A stretch of 64,000 nt of DNA from Patescibacteria group bacterium (GTDB taxonomy: Bacteria; Patescibacteriota; Patescibacteriia; UBA10025; JAHIVO01). The stretch covers positions 8,354 to 72,353 of the forward strand of contig JAHIVO010000001.1 of assembly GCA_018816445.1 (NCBI GenBank), read 5' to 3'. The translations under genes were made by a program, and so were the position numbers. A model generated the notes under the pieces. That model was not told the DNA's origin, searched no databases, and saw only the letters and a list, made by a program, of their open reading frames with translations. Shown piece by piece: positions 5,832 to 54,605 of the stretch. How positions within the stretch are numbered: position 1 is the stretch's first letter; every line of letters begins with the position of its first letter.

Positions 5832-6920
5832 ATGAAGGTACTGTTTATTTCCAGAAAATACCCGCCAAAAATTGGCGGGATGGAAAATTATACCTATAAT
5901 TTATTAAAATATTTTCCAGGGGATAATATATCCATATTGCTTAATAAGTCGCAAATACACCTGCTATGGTTTCTGCCATATGCTTTTGTTAAAGGATTAA
6001 TTTCATCCAAAAAGGTTGATGTTTATTATTTATGTGATTGCCTGATTGCTCCGGTCGGTCGGTTGTTAAAAATTTTAACAGGCAAGCCAGTTCTAGCCAC
6101 AGCACATGGGCTTGATATTACTTATAATAAATGGTTTTATCAAAAAATAAATGTTAGTTCAGCAAGAAGTTTAGATGGAATTATTTGCGTAAGCCAATCT
6201 ACTTTTGATGAGTGTAAAAAAAGAAATTTTTCAAGTAAGAAATTATCATTAATTTCCAATGGTGTTGACATTGAAAAATATTCAGGAAAAAGGCATAAGG
6301 ATTACTATAGAAATATAGTTGAAAAAAAATACAATTTTGTATTAAAAAATAAACTTGTTTTACTTACAGTTGGAAGGCTAGTTCCTAGGAAAGGTGTTGA
6401 TTGGTTTGTAAAAAATGTATTACAAAATTTGCAAGATAATATTGAATATTTAATTGTTGGTAAGGGTCCTGATAAGCAAAAAATTGATTGTAGTATCAAC
6501 CAATTAGGATTAGTAAAACGAGCTCATTTATTAGGATCAATATCTGACGATGAATTAAAAATTGTGCTTAATTCCTCTGATTTGTTTATTATGCCTAATA
6601 TTAAAGTCAGGGGAGATTGTGAAGGTTTTGGTTTAGTAGCCTTAGAGGCCGCTTCCTGTGGATTGCCAGTTATAGCTTCAAATATTGAAGGAATAAATGG
6701 CGCAATAATTGATAGAAAGAATGGTTTTTTAGTTGAGTCCGGTAATGCCCATGAATTCATAAAGCTGATTAATGAATTATTAAAAATGGACGATCGTGAA
6801 GAATTAATGCAAAAAATTAAAAATTATACCATTCAAAACTATAGTTGGAGAAATATTGCTAATCAATACTTTAAAAAAATTAATAGCATTGTACTAAAAA
6901 AAAGTTATGGATCAAACTAA
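5832..6920 (+). CDS. GT4 (GT-B) glycosyltransferase
   Basis: C-terminal 'EGFGLVALEAASCGLPVIAS' E-x7-E motif region. Confidence 0.75.
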   Translation: MKVLFISRKYPPKIGGMENYTYNLLKYFPGDNISILLNKSQIHLLWFLPYAFVKGLISSKKVDVYYLCDCLIAPVGRLLKILTGKPVLATAHGLDITYNKWFYQKINVSSARSLDGIICVSQSTFDECKKRNFSSKKLSLISNGVDIEKYSGKRHKDYYRNIVEKKYNFVLKNKLVLLTVGRLVPRKGVDWFVKNVLQNLQDNIEYLIVGKGPDKQKIDCSINQLGLVKRAHLLGSISDDELKIVLNSSDLFIMPNIKVRGDCEGFGLVALEAASCGLPVIASNIEGINGAIIDRKNGFLVESGNAHEFIKLINELLKMDDREELMQKIKNYTIQNYSWRNIANQYFKKINSIVLKKSYGSN

Positions 6921-7761
6921 GAAAATTACAACTATCATCCCAATATATAATGGTTTAAAATATCTAAAAATTTGTTTAGATTCTTTAAATCAGCAAACCT
7001 ATAAAAATTTTGAAATTGTATTGGTTGACAATGCCTCTACTGATGGCAGTCCTGATATGATTAAAAAATCATATCCAGGTGTGAAAATCATTTATAATAA
7101 AAAAAATCTTGGTTTTGCCAGAGCCAATAATAAAGGAATTAAATATGCTCTTGAAAATAATAGCGATTATATTGTAATAACTTGTCAGGATGATAGATTT
7201 GAACCAAATTTTCTAGAGCAAGGGATAAAAGTCTTGGAACAAAAAGGTGTTGGCATGTGTACTCCCAAGGTAATTTATGATGAAACAAATCGAATCTGGT
7301 GGGCTGGTGGAAAATTGCTACCACTAAAAGAGTTATTAAAATCTACTTCAATAAAAATTAGTGAACATACAGGCAAGGGAGATGAAGATGTTGGGCAGTA
7401 TAATTCTCCCAGGTTAGTTGATATTCTCACCGGTAATGCGCTGTTTGTTAAAAGAGAGGTGATTGAAAAAGTTGGATATTTTGATGAAAAATATTTTTTG
7501 TATGGTGATGATATTGATTACAGTATTCGCGCAAGAAAAGCTGGATATTCACTGATTTATTTTCCCGATACAACTGTTTATCATATGACGCCCTTGGTCA
7601 GACGGGATAAAAGAACACTAAAGCAGTTAATATTAAAATTTAAAAGGTACCTAACTGGATGGATATTGCTTGCCGCCAAGCATCTTAAGTGGTATGTAAA
7701 AATAATTTGGTTTGTTAAGCTACCAATTACTTTATTATTTACGTTGTTTAAAGATAAATAG
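6907..7761 (+). CDS. GT2 glycosyltransferase
   Basis: 'TIIPIYNGLKYL', 'EIVLVDNASTDGS' and 'DDIDYSIRARKAGY'. Confidence 0.75.
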   Translation: MDQTKKITTIIPIYNGLKYLKICLDSLNQQTYKNFEIVLVDNASTDGSPDMIKKSYPGVKIIYNKKNLGFARANNKGIKYALENNSDYIVITCQDDRFEPNFLEQGIKVLEQKGVGMCTPKVIYDETNRIWWAGGKLLPLKELLKSTSIKISEHTGKGDEDVGQYNSPRLVDILTGNALFVKREVIEKVGYFDEKYFLYGDDIDYSIRARKAGYSLIYFPDTTVYHMTPLVRRDKRTLKQLILKFKRYLTGWILLAAKHLKWYVKIIWFVKLPITLLFTLFKDK

Positions 7762-18024: not shown

Positions 18025-18309
18025 TTAGAGGTATCCCAAGCTTTTTAATCTTTCCTTAACTGATTCGTCATCATCTTTACTAAATTTTTTATCTGTATCT
18101 TGTTTTGGTTGCTTAAGAACTTCTTCTAACACAAAATTAACAAATCCCTCAACAGAAGAAAATTCACTTGAGGATTTTATTTTTTTTTGAATTTGTTGAA
18201 ATATTTTTTCGTCCAGTTTAATTGAATTCATTTTTTTATAATTAATGCTTATTAAATTATTATTTACAATAACCTCAGAAAACCAAATTCCAAATACGTT
18301 CGTGAGCAT
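18025..18309 (-). CDS. Small ribbon-helix-helix (CopG-like) protein with a CysD-like C-terminal tail; paralog of 21202..21420
   Basis: 'NSIKLDEKIFQQIQKKI…SSEFSSVEGFVNFVLEEVL' has RHH strand-helix-turn-helix topology. The C-terminus 'KKFSKDDDESVKERLKSLGYL' resembles the other RHH protein and the CysD C-terminus. Confidence 0.5.
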   Translation of the reverse strand: MLTNVFGIWFSEVIVNNNLISINYKKMNSIKLDEKIFQQIQKKIKSSSEFSSVEGFVNFVLEEVLKQPKQDTDKKFSKDDDESVKERLKSLGYL

Positions 18310-21193: not shown

Positions 21194-21201
21194 AGAACTT
21201 T

Positions 21202-21420
21202 TTATAAATAATCTAAATTTTTTAATCTATCGCGTACTCTTTTTTCATCTTCTTTGGTAAATCCCTTTTTTTCTTCATAGGAAGAAGAAACTAATTGTCT
21301 TAGCACATAAATTACATAACTGGAAACAGAATGAAAACCCGTACCGCTGATTTTTTCTTTTAATTTTTCATTAAGTTGAACTGGAATAGAGATGGTAGTA
21401 TATCTTTTTTCATTTTTCAT
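21202..21420 (-). CDS. Small ribbon-helix-helix (CopG-like) protein with a CysD-like C-terminal tail
   Basis: 'TTISIPVQLNEKLKEKISGTGFHSVSSYVIYVLRQLV' is a canonical RHH. C-terminal 'KGFTKEDEKRVRDRLKNLDYL'. Confidence 0.55.
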   Translation of the reverse strand: MKNEKRYTTISIPVQLNEKLKEKISGTGFHSVSSYVIYVLRQLVSSSYEEKKGFTKEDEKRVRDRLKNLDYL

Positions 21421-21619
21421 AGGTTTTTTAACTAATAATTGAATATGTTTATAATATAATTAATTAATTATATAGTCAAGCATTTTAATTAAATATAATG
21501 ATAATATTTGATTAATTCCTAATATTAGCTAAATATATATTTTACTAAGATATAATCTTGGTTATTGAATCGAAACTAATGTATAATTTATCTATAATTT
21601 TCAATGAAATATTTATTAT

Positions 21620-33669: not shown

Positions 33670-33999
33670 TAAATTATGTAAATAACTGCTTTACTGTTAA
33701 AAATTTCCCTATGCTTAGTTTACCAAATTATTTTACTTTGTAAAATTAAATTTTCTAGAGTTCTTAAAATATCCGTTATTGATATTTTTCACTAAGTCGG
33801 TAAACACGATACCTGAAGAACTAATGCCTTTATAATTTTAGTAAATTTTCAATGGGATATGTATAACGAAATGATTTTCTTCTGATATTTTTTCTAAGTG
33901 GTTCCAAAATAAATTCCATCTAATCTGGCGGAGAACGTCTTTTCTTTGATCAGACAAGTGTTCGGGTGTTGGTTGCGATTCCGAGTCGTAACGACATAA

Positions 34000-34887
34000 T
34001 TATATTTCATCTACCATCTGCTTAAATGAAGGAATTTTTAATTCACTGCATAAGCTATGAATAGTGCTTAAGCGCCGGTCAACAGGATTTGGTCTGGTCG
34101 ATTCTATTTTAACATTGACTTTGTATTTGTCTTTAAAGGCAGTGATCATTTCATATTTTGAAACATCATTGGAAAAAATATGGAACAACCCGTTTTTTGG
34201 AAATGCATTACGTTCAGTAATTATCTTATCGCAGATTCTTCCAAACTGCCGCGTGGTGATTCCGTTCCACATATGCGTGGTGAATCCCTGTATTGTTTGA
34301 CCTTCCTGTTTTTTAAGCCATTCAATAAGTGATACAAAACTATGTATTTCAGGGCCTATTATTGATGTACGCAATACTAAAGAATCCCTGGAAGGCTCTC
34401 CAAGGCTCTTAGACAGGCCGTACAGGTCATTTGGGTTATGTTGTGCATGTTCATTGTAAGGCGCGCCTTGCAGGCCATCGTAAACGCAATCAGTGGTAAT
34501 CTGAATTAACTTATCCTTGTAATAATGACTCAAAATATGGGGGAGGCAGCTATTTATAAATAAGGTAGTGGCAGGTTTTTTTGTGCTATATGGCTTGATA
34601 ATCCCGGCACAATTTATAAAAGCGTCAATGCTTCCCACTTGGTCAAGGAATTTTTTTGTATTGGGCCCGATATCGTCTTTTGGAAACCCATCAAGATAGT
34701 CTTGATATATATCATTTAGATCAAATTGAATTTTTTTATGTTTTTCAATATCACCATATACTTTATTTAATATATTAATTTTTTCTGCGTTCCGGAAAAT
34801 TAGCACCAGATTATATTTATCTTTTAATACATTATAAACGGCGCCGCCAAGCATTCCAGTGGGGGCAGTTATGGCGATAGTTTTCAT
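34000..34887 (-). CDS. RmlD-family NDP-sugar 4-ketoreductase (WbvR/Cap5F-like candidate)
   Basis: 'IAITAPTGMLGGAV', 'FINCAGI', 'ITTDCVYDG' and 'YGLSKSLGE' follow the RmlD pattern. Confidence 0.55.
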   Translation of the reverse strand: MKTIAITAPTGMLGGAVYNVLKDKYNLVLIFRNAEKINILNKVYGDIEKHKKIQFDLNDIYQDYLDGFPKDDIGPNTKKFLDQVGSIDAFINCAGIIKPYSTKKPATTLFINSCLPHILSHYYKDKLIQITTDCVYDGLQGAPYNEHAQHNPNDLYGLSKSLGEPSRDSLVLRTSIIGPEIHSFVSLIEWLKKQEGQTIQGFTTHMWNGITTRQFGRICDKIITERNAFPKNGLFHIFSNDVSKYEMITAFKDKYKVNVKIESTRPNPVDRRLSTIHSLCSELKIPSFKQMVDEI

Positions 34888-34964: not shown

Positions 34965-35621
34965 TTATTTAATAATTGATAAGATCATATTTTGTCTATC
35001 TTTCTCGTCTAATTCTTTCGATATTTGACCATATTTATTTTGATAGTAAATATCTGAATTCTCAGGAAGTATAAAACTTTTTTCATTTAAATTGAAATGT
35101 TTATGATGAGGGTTATTGGATTGTTTTTCACGATATGGAACAGAAAAAATAAATTTATTTATTGTTAAGTGTAGTAAATGTTTAAACATATCCTGCATAT
35201 CATTAATATGTTCTAAAAATTCAAAAGCAATTATAATATTAAATTTGTTACGTGGTTCATGAGTTGTAAATGTAATGTTAGATTTTTTAAAATGTGTGTT
35301 TGCGTATTGTATTGCTTTCTCAGAAATATCAAAACCAGTAATGGATGCCTTTTTATATGATTTCGCTATCGTATGGCAGCCATATCCCGCACCGCAAGCA
35401 TAATCTAATACGGTATCATTATTTGAAATAAACTTGGTCGCAAAAAGGTATCGTTCCTTATGGGTTTTTGTGTTTAAATTTAACTCGCACCCTAAAACTC
35501 TTTCGCCATTATTGAGAACATCGTGGTATTTATTGCTAATTCTGATTTGTCGTTTCTCGCGTAATATATGTATAAATTCTCCTATAGTTAAAAGTAGCAC
35601 ATTTTTTATTCGGGTTATCAT
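34965..35621 (-). CDS. Class I SAM-dependent methyltransferase
   Basis: 'VLDYACGAGYG' motif I and 'FNIIIAFEFLEHI'. Confidence 0.65.
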   Translation of the reverse strand: MITRIKNVLLLTIGEFIHILREKRQIRISNKYHDVLNNGERVLGCELNLNTKTHKERYLFATKFISNNDTVLDYACGAGYGCHTIAKSYKKASITGFDISEKAIQYANTHFKKSNITFTTHEPRNKFNIIIAFEFLEHINDMQDMFKHLLHLTINKFIFSVPYREKQSNNPHHKHFNLNEKSFILPENSDIYYQNKYGQISKELDEKDRQNMILSIIK

Positions 35622-35759
35622 ATATATTCTTTCTTTTTATACTCTCATCAGTTCTCTATTAAAATTGATGCGCGTATGTATTGCCGTACATTGATTTTAT
35701 TAGCAGCGCTTAGTTTAAAAATAGTTTATCATTGTATCAAATGACGAGATTTTAAGTTT

Positions 35760-35939
35760 TTAACAGAGTGTATGAACTGTTCGGAGTCTTCTGTCTATTG
35801 GAGCCGGTATAGCCGATTTAATGTTAACGTTGACATTAAATTTCTCTTTAAATGCTTGCAGAATTTCAAGCTAAGTTACGTTGCTTAAAAATATATGGAA
35901 AAGCCCATTCTGGGGATAATTATTTCTGTTGCTAATAAT
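35760..35939 (-). pseudogene. Decayed 3'-terminal fragment (~60 codons, internal TAG) of a paralog of the RmlD-like reductase gene 34000..34887
   Basis: The reverse-complement translation 'IISNRNNYPQNGLFHIFLSNVT*LEILQAFKEKFNVNVNIKSAIPAPIDRRLRTVHTLC*' aligns with the C-terminus 'IITERNAFPKNGLFHIFSNDVSKYEMITAFKDKYKVNVKIESTRPNPVDRRLSTIHSLC' of 34000..34887. Confidence 0.6.
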
Positions 35940-35944
35940 CTTGT

Positions 35945-36931
35945 TTAAATAAATCCACCTTTTGCTAATAATTCTTTGACCTGAGTTTTATTCATCAACT
36001 TGTCTTTTGAGGAGTACTCGGAAAATTTTACTTTAGGAAATTTTTTATATTTATCTTCAAGGTTATCAAGTTTTAATTCTGGTAGTATTACATAATAATT
36101 TTCATCAAATTTATATGTTCTTGGTGATTCATAACGGGAGATGAGTACTTCATCAATTTTTTCACCAGGCCTGGTCCCTGTTTCTTTGATTGGAACAGAT
36201 TTTTTTGATACCTCTTCAGCTAGTACCCGGGCTAGATCTATAATTTTACAGGCCGGCATTTTCATAACAAATGTTTCTCCGCCATGACTCATTTCACTGG
36301 CTTTGAATAATAAACCTATGGCTTGTTGAAGTGTAAGGAAATACCTAGTCATGCGTTTATCTGTCAGGGTTATACTTCCATTATTTTTAATTTGATCAAT
36401 AAAAAATGGCACCACACTACCATTTGTACCTAAGACATTTCCACCGCGGATACATACAAAAGTGGTATTACTTGGCTCTAAATTAGCCTGGATGATTAAT
36501 CTCTCTCCAATTGCTTTGGTCATACCATAAAGATTAAGTGGGTCTACGGCTTTGTCCGAAGATATATCAATTACTCTTTTTACATTATTTATTTTAGCTG
36601 CTTCAATAATATTTTTTGTTCCGACAATATTTGTTTTTATCGCCTCATAGGGTTGCTCTTCACAAACGGGGACATGTTTTAATGCAGCCAGGTGAAAAAT
36701 ATAATCAACTTCTTTAGTAGCTTCTATTAATCTATCGCGATCACGAACATCACCGATTATGAATTTAATTTTACCATTTTTAAATTTTCGTTCCATGTTA
36801 ACTTGATGCAGTTCACTCCGCGAAAAAATAATGATTTGTTTTGGATTTTTTAAGAGCAATTGAGCCGTTAATTCATTGCCCCACGATCCAGTGCCACCAG
36901 TTATAAGTATAATTTTATCTTTAAACATCAT
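35945..36931 (-). CDS. UDP-GlcNAc 4,6-dehydratase of the PseB/FlaA1/Cap5E/WbjB family
   Basis: 'KIILITGGTGSWGNEL…IIIFSRSELHQVNMERKF' closely matches the PseB/Cap5E N-terminus; 328 aa. Confidence 0.75.
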   Translation of the reverse strand: MMFKDKIILITGGTGSWGNELTAQLLLKNPKQIIIFSRSELHQVNMERKFKNGKIKFIIGDVRDRDRLIEATKEVDYIFHLAALKHVPVCEEQPYEAIKTNIVGTKNIIEAAKINNVKRVIDISSDKAVDPLNLYGMTKAIGERLIIQANLEPSNTTFVCIRGGNVLGTNGSVVPFFIDQIKNNGSITLTDKRMTRYFLTLQQAIGLLFKASEMSHGGETFVMKMPACKIIDLARVLAEEVSKKSVPIKETGTRPGEKIDEVLISRYESPRTYKFDENYYVILPELKLDNLEDKYKKFPKVKFSEYSSKDKLMNKTQVKELLAKGGFI

Positions 36932-36935
36932 ATAA

Positions 36936-38027
36936 TTATAATAAATTTTCCTTATTAGTTAATAAAAAATTAATTACTTTATCTGATACATTTTTATCAA
37001 GATATCCTATTGGATATTCCCAGTGGTTATTTTTTTGAAGCATAAAATTTGTTGCTTCAAATATTTTATTTTTATCCAGATCAGATAAAATATTACTGCC
37101 GCAATCCACTGTTTCCGGTCGTTCAGTAGTCCTTCTGATTGTTACAGTGGGGACATTAAAGATACAGCATTCTTCCTGTACAGTTCCGCTATCAGATATC
37201 GCGCAAATTGCATTTTTTTCTAATTTTACAAAATCAAAAAAGTTAAAAGGACTTGATAATTTGATTAATTTTGATTTAGGCCTTATTCTAAATTTCTTTA
37301 TTTTTTCCTTTGTGCGGGGGTGAATACTGCAGATTATTGGAATTTTATATTTATTAGCAATAAGATTAAGCCCCAAAAAAATATTTTTTAGCCTGAGTTT
37401 GTTATCTACATTTTCTGCACGGTGAGCAGTTACGACAAAAAATTTATTTTTTGAGAGCTTTAGTTCTTTTAATATATTACTTCTATCAATTTTTGTTTTA
37501 TTTTTTATCAGTACTTCATTGATTGGATTTCCTGAAGCCATGATACGCTGGGCAGGGAAACCTTCACGCAATAAGTTTTCCCTGCTTCTTGGCGTATATG
37601 GGAGATTATATGTCGATACTGCATCAATAATTTTACGATTTTTTTCTTCAGGAACCAGAGGATCGTAGCATCTATTTCCTGCTTCCATGTGATAAACAGG
37701 AATTTGCATTTTTTCAGCAATAATTGAAGCAAGACCACTATTAGTATCTCCAAGAATTAGGATTTTATCAGGTGATATTATTTTTAAAATATCGTAAGTT
37801 TTTTTAAAAATAATAGCTAATTGCTGACCAATGTTTGATGTATCTGCTGATAAATAATAATCTGGCTGACGTAAATTTAAATCTTTAAAAAAGATATCTT
37901 TTAAATCTGGTGAATAATTTTGATCAGTATGAATGATTTTGTGATCACATAGTTTATCAAGCTTTTGCATTATTATGCTGAGCCTGATGATTTCTGGCCT
38001 AGTACCCAAAATTGTAGTAATTTTCAT
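36936..38027 (-). CDS. UDP-N-acetylglucosamine 2-epimerase family (WecB/Cap5G/WbjD-like)
   Basis: 'ILGTRPEIIRLS' signature and a 363-aa GT-B-like epimerase fold. Confidence 0.8.
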   Translation of the reverse strand: MKITTILGTRPEIIRLSIIMQKLDKLCDHKIIHTDQNYSPDLKDIFFKDLNLRQPDYYLSADTSNIGQQLAIIFKKTYDILKIISPDKILILGDTNSGLASIIAEKMQIPVYHMEAGNRCYDPLVPEEKNRKIIDAVSTYNLPYTPRSRENLLREGFPAQRIMASGNPINEVLIKNKTKIDRSNILKELKLSKNKFFVVTAHRAENVDNKLRLKNIFLGLNLIANKYKIPIICSIHPRTKEKIKKFRIRPKSKLIKLSSPFNFFDFVKLEKNAICAISDSGTVQEECCIFNVPTVTIRRTTERPETVDCGSNILSDLDKNKIFEATNFMLQKNNHWEYPIGYLDKNVSDKVINFLLTNKENLL

Positions 38028-52059: not shown

Positions 52060-53202
52060 ATGAAGTTATTAGTCACAGGCGGAGCAGGATTTATTGGCTC
52101 AAATTTTATTCACTATTGGCTAAAAGAGCATCCAGATGATTCAATTGTTAATCTGGACTGTTTAACTTATGCTGGTAATCCGTATACAGATAAAGATAGG
52201 AATAAAAAGCCAGCAAATTTAAAGGACTTAGAAAATAATCAGAATTATAAGTTTGAAAATTTTGATATTACTTGTCCGATAAAATATTCTCAGGCAGAAA
52301 CTTCTGATGAATATGGCCGTTTTGATAGCAAGGAATTTAATCGATTGAAGGATTTTATCAAGAATTCCGATACCGTTGTTCATTTTGCCGCTGAATCACA
52401 TGTTGATAAATCAGTTTTAAATGCTGGACCTGATAGACCAGATGCATACGATTTTGTTTTAACAAATACTTGGGGTACTCACATTATGCTTGAAGCCGCA
52501 GTTAAAGCTTGGAAAGATAGTAATTTTAATAATAAAAGATTCCATCATATTTCTACCGATGAAGTTTTTGGTGCTTTAGCATTGGATGACCCTAACAAAT
52601 TTAATGAACAAACGGCATACGATCCTCGCAGCCCATATTCTGCTTCAAAAGCTGGAGCTGATCATTTGGTTCGCGCTTATAATACTAGTTATGATTTGCC
52701 GACTACTATATCAAACACTTCAAATAACTATGGTCCTTATATGTATCCGGAAAAATTACTACCATTAGCAATAACAAATTTATTAGAAAATAAAAAAGTT
52801 CCAATTTATGGAGACGGAAAATATGTACGTGACTGGTTGTATGTAGATGACCATTGCCAAGCAATTGATTTAATTATAAAAAAAGGTAAAGTAGGTGATT
52901 CTTATTGCATTGGTGGTTTAACTGATGATATAAATAACTTGGAACTAATTAAAAAAGTTTTAAAAATTTTAAATAAAGATGAAAACTCTTTGGAGTACGT
53001 TAAAGATCGGCCTGGCCACGACCGTCGTTATGCGGTTAATTGGGATAAAGCAAAAAAAGAGCTAGGTTATCGGCCGAGGTATGATTTGGATACTTATTTA
53101 GAAAAAATGATTATTTGGTATCAAAAAAATGAAGCTTGGTGGAAACCTATTAAAGAGGGTGAGTTTAAAGAATATTATAAACGTCAATATATTGAAAGAT
53201 GA
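52060..53202 (+). CDS. rfbB: dTDP-glucose 4,6-dehydratase
   Basis: 'LLVTGGAGFIGSNFIHYWL', 'HFAAESHVDKS', 'YSASKAGADHLVRAY' (YxxxK) and 'RPGHDRRYAV'; ~25 aa longer than E. coli RmlB. Confidence 0.9.
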   Translation: MKLLVTGGAGFIGSNFIHYWLKEHPDDSIVNLDCLTYAGNPYTDKDRNKKPANLKDLENNQNYKFENFDITCPIKYSQAETSDEYGRFDSKEFNRLKDFIKNSDTVVHFAAESHVDKSVLNAGPDRPDAYDFVLTNTWGTHIMLEAAVKAWKDSNFNNKRFHHISTDEVFGALALDDPNKFNEQTAYDPRSPYSASKAGADHLVRAYNTSYDLPTTISNTSNNYGPYMYPEKLLPLAITNLLENKKVPIYGDGKYVRDWLYVDDHCQAIDLIIKKGKVGDSYCIGGLTDDINNLELIKKVLKILNKDENSLEYVKDRPGHDRRYAVNWDKAKKELGYRPRYDLDTYLEKMIIWYQKNEAWWKPIKEGEFKEYYKRQYIER

Positions 53203-53218
53203 ATTTAAGAATAATAAA

Positions 53219-54070
53219 ATGAAGGTACTAATTACAGGTGCATTAGGCATGCTGGGCCAGCAATTAGCTAAAGTTTATAAAGATCAGGATCCTATTCTTT
53301 GGGATAGGGAAGTGATAGATATTACTGATAAGGATAAGGTATTAACACAGATTTCTAAGATTAAGCCTGATATTGTCTTAAATACAGCAGCTTATAATGA
53401 TGTAGACGGAGCTGAAAATAACGAGGCTCTAGCTATGGAAATTAACGGTCATGCCATTGGACACCTGGCTAAGGCGGTTAGTACTGCAGGAGGCATTCTC
53501 GTGCATTACAGCACGGACTACGTATTTAAGGGAGATAGTGTTGAAGGCTATAAAGAAGATGGTCAACCAGATCCGCAGTCTGCTTATGCGCGTTCAAAAT
53601 ATCTAGGCGAACAGGAATTAGTTGATAATATCCAAAATTATTATTTAATCAGATTATCCAGATTATTTGGGCGCCCAGCAAAGAGTAAAAGCGGAAAAAA
53701 AAGCTTTGTTGAGATAATACTTGATTTAGCTAATAACCAAGATGAAGTTAATGTCATTGATGAGGAAGTATCCTCGCCAACATATTCTGTAGATTTGGCA
53801 TTAGCCACCAAAGCAATTATTGATCAAAAAAAATCTTTTGGAATTTATCATATTTCCAATAACGGCTCCTGCACCTGGTTTGAATTTGCAAAGGAAATTT
53901 TTTCTAATTATAATATAAAAGTAAAGCTAAATCCAGTACCCGCGGATTTTTTTTCCAGACCCGCCTTACGCCCTAAATATTCAGTTTTATTGAATAATAA
54001 GACTGAACCATTGCGCAGCTGGCAATATGCACTTAAAGATTATATGTCTGTAAAAAATCATGAAATTTAA
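53219..54070 (+). CDS. rfbD: dTDP-4-dehydrorhamnose reductase (start taken at MKVLITG; the ORF opens at 53129, overlapping rfbB)
   Basis: 'VLITGALGMLGQQL', 'VLNTAAYNDVDGAENNEA', 'HYSTDYVFKG' and 'YARSKYLGE'. Confidence 0.85.
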   Translation: MKVLITGALGMLGQQLAKVYKDQDPILWDREVIDITDKDKVLTQISKIKPDIVLNTAAYNDVDGAENNEALAMEINGHAIGHLAKAVSTAGGILVHYSTDYVFKGDSVEGYKEDGQPDPQSAYARSKYLGEQELVDNIQNYYLIRLSRLFGRPAKSKSGKKSFVEIILDLANNQDEVNVIDEEVSSPTYSVDLALATKAIIDQKKSFGIYHISNNGSCTWFEFAKEIFSNYNIKVKLNPVPADFFSRPALRPKYSVLLNNKTEPLRSWQYALKDYMSVKNHEI

Positions 54071-54605
54071 GGAAACAAAATTTAATGACGCCTGGTTGAT
54101 TGAGCCGGATGTTTATAAAGATACCAGGGGATTTTTTATGGAAACTTTTTCCAAAGAATGGTTTGAGGAAAAAGGTATTAAAGTTAATTTTGTTCAGGAT
54201 AATCATTCTAAGTCGGTAAAGTCTGGAGTATTACGTGGACTGCATTTTCAGCTACCGCCGCATAATCAAGCAAAGTTAGTGCGAGTCTGTAATGGTGCAG
54301 TGTATGACGTGGTAGTTGATTTAAGAAAAGATTCTGAAACTTTTGGTCAGTGGGAGGGTTTTGAATTGACCGCAAATAATCATTTGATGTTTTTTATACC
54401 TCGCGGATTTGCCCATGGTTATTGCACCTTGCAACCAAATACTGAGTTTTTGTATAAGATTGATAATTTATATTCTCCGGAGTATGATACTGGCATAATT
54501 TGGAATGATCCGATTTTAAACATTAAATGGCCAATATCAAATCCAATTATTTCAGATAAGGATGCTCAATTACAGTCATTTAAACAATTCAAATCTCCAT
54601 TCTAA
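54060..54605 (+). CDS. rfbC: dTDP-4-dehydrorhamnose 3,5-epimerase
   Basis: 'DTRGFFMETF', 'RGLHFQ' and 'KLVRVCNGAVYDVVVDLRKDSETFGQW'. Confidence 0.9.
   Translation: MKFKETKFNDAWLIEPDVYKDTRGFFMETFSKEWFEEKGIKVNFVQDNHSKSVKSGVLRGLHFQLPPHNQAKLVRVCNGAVYDVVVDLRKDSETFGQWEGFELTANNHLMFFIPRGFAHGYCTLQPNTEFLYKIDNLYSPEYDTGIIWNDPILNIKWPISNPIISDKDAQLQSFKQFKSPF

Follow-up and report, generated by a model that had tools for sequence, protein, structure and literature searches.

The 323-nt spacer between a dehydratase gene and a methyltransferase gene in a surface-glycan locus of Patescibacteria contains the 3' end of a gene for an RmlD-like 4-reductase. We regard it as likely (probability about 0.8) that this segment is the non-functional remnant of a reductase gene, redA, which once completed an epimerase–dehydratase–reductase cassette, and that the locus as it now stands is a pruned hybrid of two cassettes. 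The locus lies within a stretch of 64,000 nt, referred to here as the window.

The spacer (35622..35944) reaches from the start of the methyltransferase gene (35621) to the stop of the dehydratase gene (35945), and no long open reading frame is present in it. Translation of the minus strand from 35942 to 35715 yields KIISNRNNYPQNGLFHIFLSNVT*LEILQAFKEKFNVNVNIKSAIPAPIDRRLRTVHTLC*KLKISSFDTMINYF*. BLASTP aligns this sequence with the product of the neighboring intact reductase gene, redB (34000..34887), in a single ungapped alignment over residues 221–293, in which 40 of the 73 residues are identical (55% at the amino acid level, E 4e-29); a residue-for-residue match to the 3' end of redB, as claimed in the initial annotation, is thus borne out. 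The stub (35715..35942, minus strand) comprises 75 codons, equivalent to codons 221–295, plus a natural stop, and superimposes codon for codon on the 3'-terminal 75 codons of redB and their stop, its terminal TAA (35717..35715) being in register with the redB stop. The Rossmann domain and the start codon are missing. Two stops interrupt the reading frame, a TAG at stub codon 24 (35871..35873, minus strand) that replaces a family-conserved Lys, and a TAA at stub codon 61 (35760..35762, minus strand), and there are no frameshifts. The match had originally been described as some 58 residues with one TAG; its existence stands, but it extends 15 codons further in the 3' direction and contains two stops. 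At the DNA level 137 of 228 nucleotides are identical (60%), with 29% expected from composition, and the best local DNA alignment scores 40, compared with 23.2 +/- 2.7 in 300 shuffles (maximum 35). The similarity therefore holds up in the comparison with AT bias that had been proposed as a check. Identity outside the 228 nt falls on both flanks to ~30–32%, the random level. A blastx comparison of the stub with family members from other genomes gave E 1e-28.

Homology starts 2 nt past the dehydratase stop codon (TAA-AC-AAG), so the earlier statement that it begins exactly at that stop is correct to within these two nucleotides. They form the deletion junction (AC, 35943..35944, minus strand), which joins the dehydratase stop to stub codon 221; the missing 220 codons were simply deleted. 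The methyltransferase gene does not occupy the place where the rest of the reductase would have been, as had been suggested, since it is found beyond the 3' end of the stub, on the downstream side. The 93 nt from the stub stop to the methyltransferase start (35622..35714, minus strand) are without homology, their 30% identity to the region past redB being at random level, and neither an Rfam match nor a terminator was found there. A direct repeat of 11 nt, ATTATTAGCAA, is present in two exact copies that straddle the junction (35972..35962 and 35939..35929, minus strand), one inside the 3' end of the dehydratase gene and the other at stub codons 2–5; the whole 64-kb window has just five repeats that are at least 11 nt long and lie within 60 nt of each other. 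The junction could not be derived from this repeat. Microhomologies picked out by eye were discarded: neither AAGA, at codons 2 and 221, nor TATTT, shared by the dehydratase end and reductase codons 217–218, reproduces the observed junction, as they give the wrong length or would retain an ATG. The stub junction showed neither an insertion sequence nor an H-repeat.

The 75-aa stub alone matched no Pfam or NCBIfam model, and a search of an index of 5.8 billion proteins returned nothing, there being no candidate with enough shared 5-residue words. Its full-length homologue redB, however, matches RmlD_sub_bind with 48.7 bits against a cut-off of 27 bits, and from such full-length homologues we infer that the parent gene of the stub belonged to the RmlD-like family (PF04321). 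The 295-aa reductase subfamily is rich in Patescibacteria (2503 hits), and 120 family members retrieved with full-length redB as the query were used for comparison with the stub. Among the columns at least 80% conserved in the family, the stub keeps 17 of 24, whereas the family mean is 22.1 and nearly all members keep at least 18. The loss of seven of the 24 conserved residues, compared with about two in members, indicates relaxed constraint on the stub, and makes it doubtful that the rearrangement was recent, as initially proposed. Family homology, an incapacity to encode the full protein, relaxed constraint, and a counterpart that is intact in relatives at the corresponding position together mark the stub as a probable pseudogene.

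That counterpart was found in loci identified by scans with the dehydratase protein. In the window, the dehydratase (35945..36931, minus strand; 328 aa; Polysacc_synt_2, E 3e-99) belongs by sequence to the PseB/FnlA/CapE class of UDP-GlcNAc 4,6-dehydratases, and scores below the equivalog cut-offs of both the PseB model (330 bits, cut-off 408) and the FnlA model (276 bits, cut-off 730). Its best solved relatives are 4j2o (E 2e-79), 6bwc, 2gn4 and CapE. It is preceded by a gene for a 363-aa protein resembling non-hydrolysing UDP-GlcNAc 2-epimerases (36936..38027, minus strand), which exceeds the cut-off of TIGR00236 wecB (268.8 bits, cut-off 210). We refer to the epimerase–dehydratase–reductase arrangement, to which both genes belong, as A-type. 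Two close relatives of the locus were recovered: L096, whose JGI metagenome also yielded one of the strain samples, with an epimerase 86% and a dehydratase 85% identical to those of the window, and L015, the Patescibacteria metagenome-assembled genome contig JBAZKE010000001.1, with 77% and 81%, respectively. Both carry an intact 295-aa reductase gene 2–3 nt past the dehydratase stop (TAA-TC-ATG in L096, TAA-TGT-ATG in L015) and no methyltransferase gene. Synteny between the window and L015 covers the flippase (55% identity), GT423 (71%), epimerase (77%) and dehydratase (81%) and ends at the reductase, the genes beyond being unrelated. More broadly, the order epimerase, dehydratase, reductase recurs widely: 104 loci encode a dehydratase that shares 50% identity or more with that of the window, and in 51 of them an RmlD-like reductase gene directly follows the dehydratase gene. 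Because L096 and L015 have an intact reductase at the same place, the stub is best read as what is left of the resident reductase gene, redA, after loss of codons 1–220. The comparison with orthologous loci that had been recommended upheld, in the two nearest relatives, the proposal that a full reductase gene once followed the dehydratase gene and was later truncated.

The intact reductase gene of the window appears to have different affiliations. RedB (34000..34887, minus strand; 295 aa; RmlD_sub_bind, E 7e-13) matches the substrate-binding domain of RmlD, dTDP-4-dehydrorhamnose reductase (PF04321), and also the structure of Sulfolobus RmlD, 2ggs (E 1.3e-10); the part of the RmlD fold covered by the stub is its C-terminal quarter. 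Against the rmlD equivalog model redB reaches 46.6 bits, with a cut-off of 224. Its five nearest homologues (66–69% identity) are all encoded in the context SDR–cupin–(methyltransferase)–reductase–5xx–Epimerase_2, here called B-type. This context comprises an SDR gene (322–323 aa), a cupin gene (147–151 aa), the reductase gene and, in most loci, genes for a ~510-aa protein designated 5xx and for a ~400-aa Epimerase_2 protein; a methyltransferase gene between cupin and reductase was seen in one locus, L011. In a full-length identity matrix, redB and these five proteins share 65–73% identity among themselves and the reductases of L015 and L096 share 66%, whereas identities between the two groups are 55–61%. 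RedB is closer to the cupin group by 9.1 points (bootstrap CI 5.0–13.2; none of 2000 replicates at or below zero). Judged by these identities, redB belongs to the reductase subgroup of the cupin context and not to that of the dehydratase context.

The signal for this grouping sits wholly in the N-terminal 220 residues of redB. A chimeric redB with a breakpoint at codon 220 was considered, since its C-terminal 75 residues come no closer to the cupin group, and was rejected, this stretch lacking such signal in every family member. The same property bears on the stub, which is 48–63% identical to all members, while all C-terminal pairs in the family fall between 48 and 67%; an attempt to assign it to a subgroup from its own sequence was abandoned, the bootstrap interval (-9.6 to +5.6 points) spanning zero. 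As this C-terminal stretch is uninformative about the grouping of every member, the subgroup of the stub cannot be read from its sequence, and it is therefore the position of the stub that argues for its A-type origin. The motif KIISNR, considered as a derived feature common to the stub, L015 and L096, was rejected because it is the family consensus. As a separate observation, the GC3 of redB is 34%, compared with 21–26% in the methyltransferase, dehydratase, epimerase and GT423 genes, a weak hint of a different origin.

Additional evidence on the surroundings of redB comes from the 330-nt spacer immediately after it (33670..33999), which consists almost wholly of three gene stubs. The window is ~95% coding, and its only gaps of at least 300 nt that contain no homologue of an intact gene are this spacer and 35622..35944. 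The first stub is the 5' end of a 5xx gene, the ~510-aa gene without Pfam match (33919..33997, minus strand; ESQPTPEHLSDQRKDVLRQIR versus ESMPIPEDWSEERKDIHRLIQ, 11 of 21 residues identical): its ATG lies 2 nt past the redB stop, the spacing seen in B-type loci, and it spans ~26 codons with a frameshift near codon 5. The second comprises the last ~40 codons of 5xx to the natural stop (33830..33961, minus strand), with one in-frame stop and 19 of 36 residues identical to the 506-aa protein of L005 (E 2.5e-5 against the whole window, 5e-10 against the spacer). The third corresponds to the last ~46 codons of the ~400-aa Epimerase_2 gene (33700..33837, minus strand; "Epi2-prime"), with three in-frame stops and 22 of 41 residues identical to the 401-aa epimerase of L013 (E 4e-7 against the whole window); no match to this region was obtained with the 363-aa epimerase that the window itself encodes. 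The order reductase, 5xx, epimerase is the B-type order, and therefore provides independent evidence that redB lies in a B-type segment. The presence of further gene stubs in the next spacer also agrees with the view, expressed in the initial annotation, that the locus is evolutionarily plastic.

The gene order of L011 (flippase–GT401–GT416–[SDR–cupin]–methyltransferase–reductase–truncated 5xx–Epimerase_2) is collinear with that of the window (flippase–GT401–GT423–[epimerase–dehydratase–redA stub]–methyltransferase–redB–5xx stub–epimerase stub–GT389) save for the one bracketed cassette. Traces of the SDR (SDR323) or cupin gene of a B-type cassette were sought in the window and none were found. 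Among the side observations on these loci, a conserved protein of ~506–523 aa without Pfam match is encoded directly behind the reductase and ahead of the ~400-aa Epimerase_2 in several Patescibacteria glycan loci (6894..8414 in L005, 6892..8463 in L009, 6891..8423 in L013). In L011, a 122-aa open reading frame past the reductase (6861..7229) carries the N-terminal motif of 5xx and, by eye, its C-terminal motif as well; it looks like an independent internal deletion of 5xx, a gene that seems to have been lost repeatedly.

The methyltransferase gene (34965..35621, minus strand) encodes a class I SAM-dependent enzyme of 218 aa (Pfam Methyltransf_31/23/25) that is a near-orphan: a word-indexed search of 5.8 billion proteins recovered only the protein itself and one other, 30% identical, encoded on the phage-like contig L175 beside DUF5131 and SLT genes. 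The context of this relative was rejected as a clue to the origin of the gene, its neighbors being unrelated. The methyltransferase of the window occurs in none of the 104 dehydratase-related loci. It is 26% identical over 80 aa to the methyltransferase of L011, in the generic SAM-binding motif only, and so an ancestral order with a methyltransferase before the reductase is not established.

Three other explanations of the spacer were weighed against a resident reductase that was lost. The initial annotation had called it a decayed duplicate of the neighboring gene, that is, the product of a recent local duplication of the redB 3' end. In favor of this, a distance of only 1.7 kb separates the two homologous segments, which share a strand and can be aligned residue by residue. 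If redB were the source, however, its DNA should be the closest match to the stub and decay should have struck all codon positions equally. Instead, the 60% nucleotide identity is distributed very unevenly over codon positions 1, 2 and 3 (59%, 83% and 38%). Third positions are close to the random level of ~29% while second positions are kept, which points to long divergence of two genes under purifying selection at the protein level; by this measure, the stub and redB parted long ago, while both were functional. In addition, redB ranks only fifth among the 120 family members as a match to the stub (55%), behind, among others, a protein from a Kerfeldbacteria genome (63%) and one from another Patescibacteria genome (60%), and at the nucleotide level the stub is 67% identical to the L015 reductase gene compared with 60% for redB. 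Together with an intact reductase at the exact stub position in relatives, and with the placement of redB in a different subgroup from these positional orthologues, these data make a duplication highly improbable. An artefact, whether a chance match caused by AT bias, an assembly chimera, or sequencing errors that introduced stops into a live gene, would be conceivable in an AT-rich window (32% GC) from a metagenome-assembled genome, but is still less credible and can practically be dismissed. The E value of 4e-29, the identity of 60% where 29% is expected, and shuffles that never reach the DNA score argue against chance. Three more assemblies made independently (ENA, Logan and JGI) carry the spacer at 100% identity, and a fourth contig covers part of the region. 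These assemblies represent the same population, sampled and assembled differently, and are 99.85–100% identical over 1.8–12.9 kb; the stops are therefore not sequencing errors. Furthermore, removal of the stops would restore no gene, as a start codon and the Rossmann domain of 220 codons would still be lacking.

The stub might alternatively have been retained for a function, serving the methyltransferase and reductase genes as a 5' leader or internal promoter, or as a source of a small peptide or RNA. Its lack of indels despite point decay is compatible with such a role, as is its persistence in a genome that is otherwise tightly packed (~95% coding), and two weak sigma-70-like matches (9 of 12 positions; 35776→35749 and 35740→35712) lie within it, upstream of the methyltransferase start. 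Promoter-like matches are nevertheless about as frequent as in shuffled sequence (20 versus 16.6 +/- 4.1). The spacer has no Rfam match and an RNA fold z-score of -0.36, and checks for a terminator or tRNA were negative. It contains no open reading frame longer than 38 aa, and none with a start codon in the homologous register. We therefore consider a retained function unlikely, if somewhat less so than a duplication or an artefact, and favor a remnant of redA.

With redA as the resident reductase, the observed homologies and coordinates, the gene order in relatives and the subgroup of redB can be accommodated by the following history. An A-type cassette (epimerase–dehydratase–redA) would have come to adjoin the right half of a B-type cassette (…redB–5xx–Epimerase_2), taking the place occupied by SDR–cupin in relatives. 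The merged locus would then have had two reductases and two 2-epimerases, and one copy of each redundant gene would have been lost through deletion and point decay: redA would have lost codons 1–220 and later gained its two stops, the B-type epimerase would have been cut to its last ~46 codons, and 5xx to both of its ends. The surviving set would consist of the A-type epimerase and dehydratase, the B-type redB, and a lineage-specific methyltransferase. In this scheme, the order of events is deduced from the present arrangement, redB would now probably carry out the 4-reductase step that follows the dehydratase, and the stub would serve as an untranslated operon spacer. No genome was found with the intermediate that this history predicts, which would have the methyltransferase and redB downstream of an intact redA. 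A more speculative extension, which we advance only tentatively, is that the three stubs record the merging and subsequent reciprocal pruning of two complete nucleotide-sugar cassettes in a streamlined CPR genome. The hybrid pathway might then make a sugar produced by neither parent, possibly a methylated 6-deoxy-L-HexNAc, and the exchange of reductases might have been adaptive, through stereochemistry or the surface antigen, instead of a neutral loss.

It is textbook knowledge that O-antigen and capsule loci harbor gene remnants where cassettes meet. A close parallel is provided by the Salmonella group B1/D1 O-antigen clusters, where wzy was functionally replaced and then degraded through serial deletions (PMC3715488). 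As in those clusters, the gene at issue here appears to have been replaced by another copy and degraded, and its stub lies between intact genes; in both cases stubs mark the junctions of blocks of different ancestry and serve to reconstruct the history of the locus. Unlike the Salmonella case, the host belongs to the Patescibacteria (CPR) and is known from metagenomes only, the replaced gene encodes a nucleotide-sugar 4-reductase and not a polymerase, and the replacing gene is located in the same locus, 1.7 kb away.

With respect to the pathway, the window and its relatives combine, in one operon, a PseB/FnlA-class dehydratase, an RmlD-like reductase and a WecB-like 2-epimerase. The same protein classes make up the WbvB/WbvR/WbvD pathway, one of the three-enzyme 2-acetamido-2,6-dideoxy-L-hexose pathways, to which the CapE/F/G pathway is related, as is FnlA/B/C. 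A passage in PMC6765297 describes WbvB, WbvR and WbvD of Vibrio cholerae O37 as a three-enzyme route to UDP-L-QuiNAc. The window differs from this route in its additional methyltransferase. At the equivalog level only the epimerase passes (wecB); the dehydratase falls below the PseB and FnlA cut-offs and the reductase below that of rmlD, and the sugar product is consequently not established. A canonical set of rmlB (380 aa), rmlD and an rmlC-like cupin gene (181 aa) is present elsewhere in the window (52060..54605), with rmlD in an open reading frame at 53129..54070 and its probable start at an internal MKVLITG; the genome thus encodes a separate, standard rhamnose-type pathway. The segment 53203..54059 was initially considered a non-coding gap and then rejected as such, as it is covered by the intact rmlD, whose reading frame overlaps rmlB. 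Because redB scores far below the RmlD cut-off and the canonical rml set lies elsewhere, the 295-aa proteins form a distinct subfamily.

Patescibacteria are uncultured organisms with tiny genomes, whose surface chemistry is almost unknown, and the stub provides a clean, datable footprint of the rebuilding of one of their surface-glycan loci. The stubs reveal former gene neighbors and a slot at which sugar cassettes, either SDR–cupin or epimerase–dehydratase, may be exchanged, and they suggest that a reductase of one subgroup took over from that of another. For annotation, the 323-nt and 330-nt "intergenic" regions are better treated as pseudogene remnants than as search space for regulatory RNAs. 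General principles are unchanged by this, the stub being an ordinary gene remnant of an already known kind. Elsewhere in the window, an apparent gap of 426 nt (21194..21619) contains on the minus strand a 72-aa stretch that is 32% identical to the product of a 94-aa open reading frame at 18025..18309 (E 4e-6), and which, judged by this similarity, may represent either an unannotated small paralogue or one more remnant.
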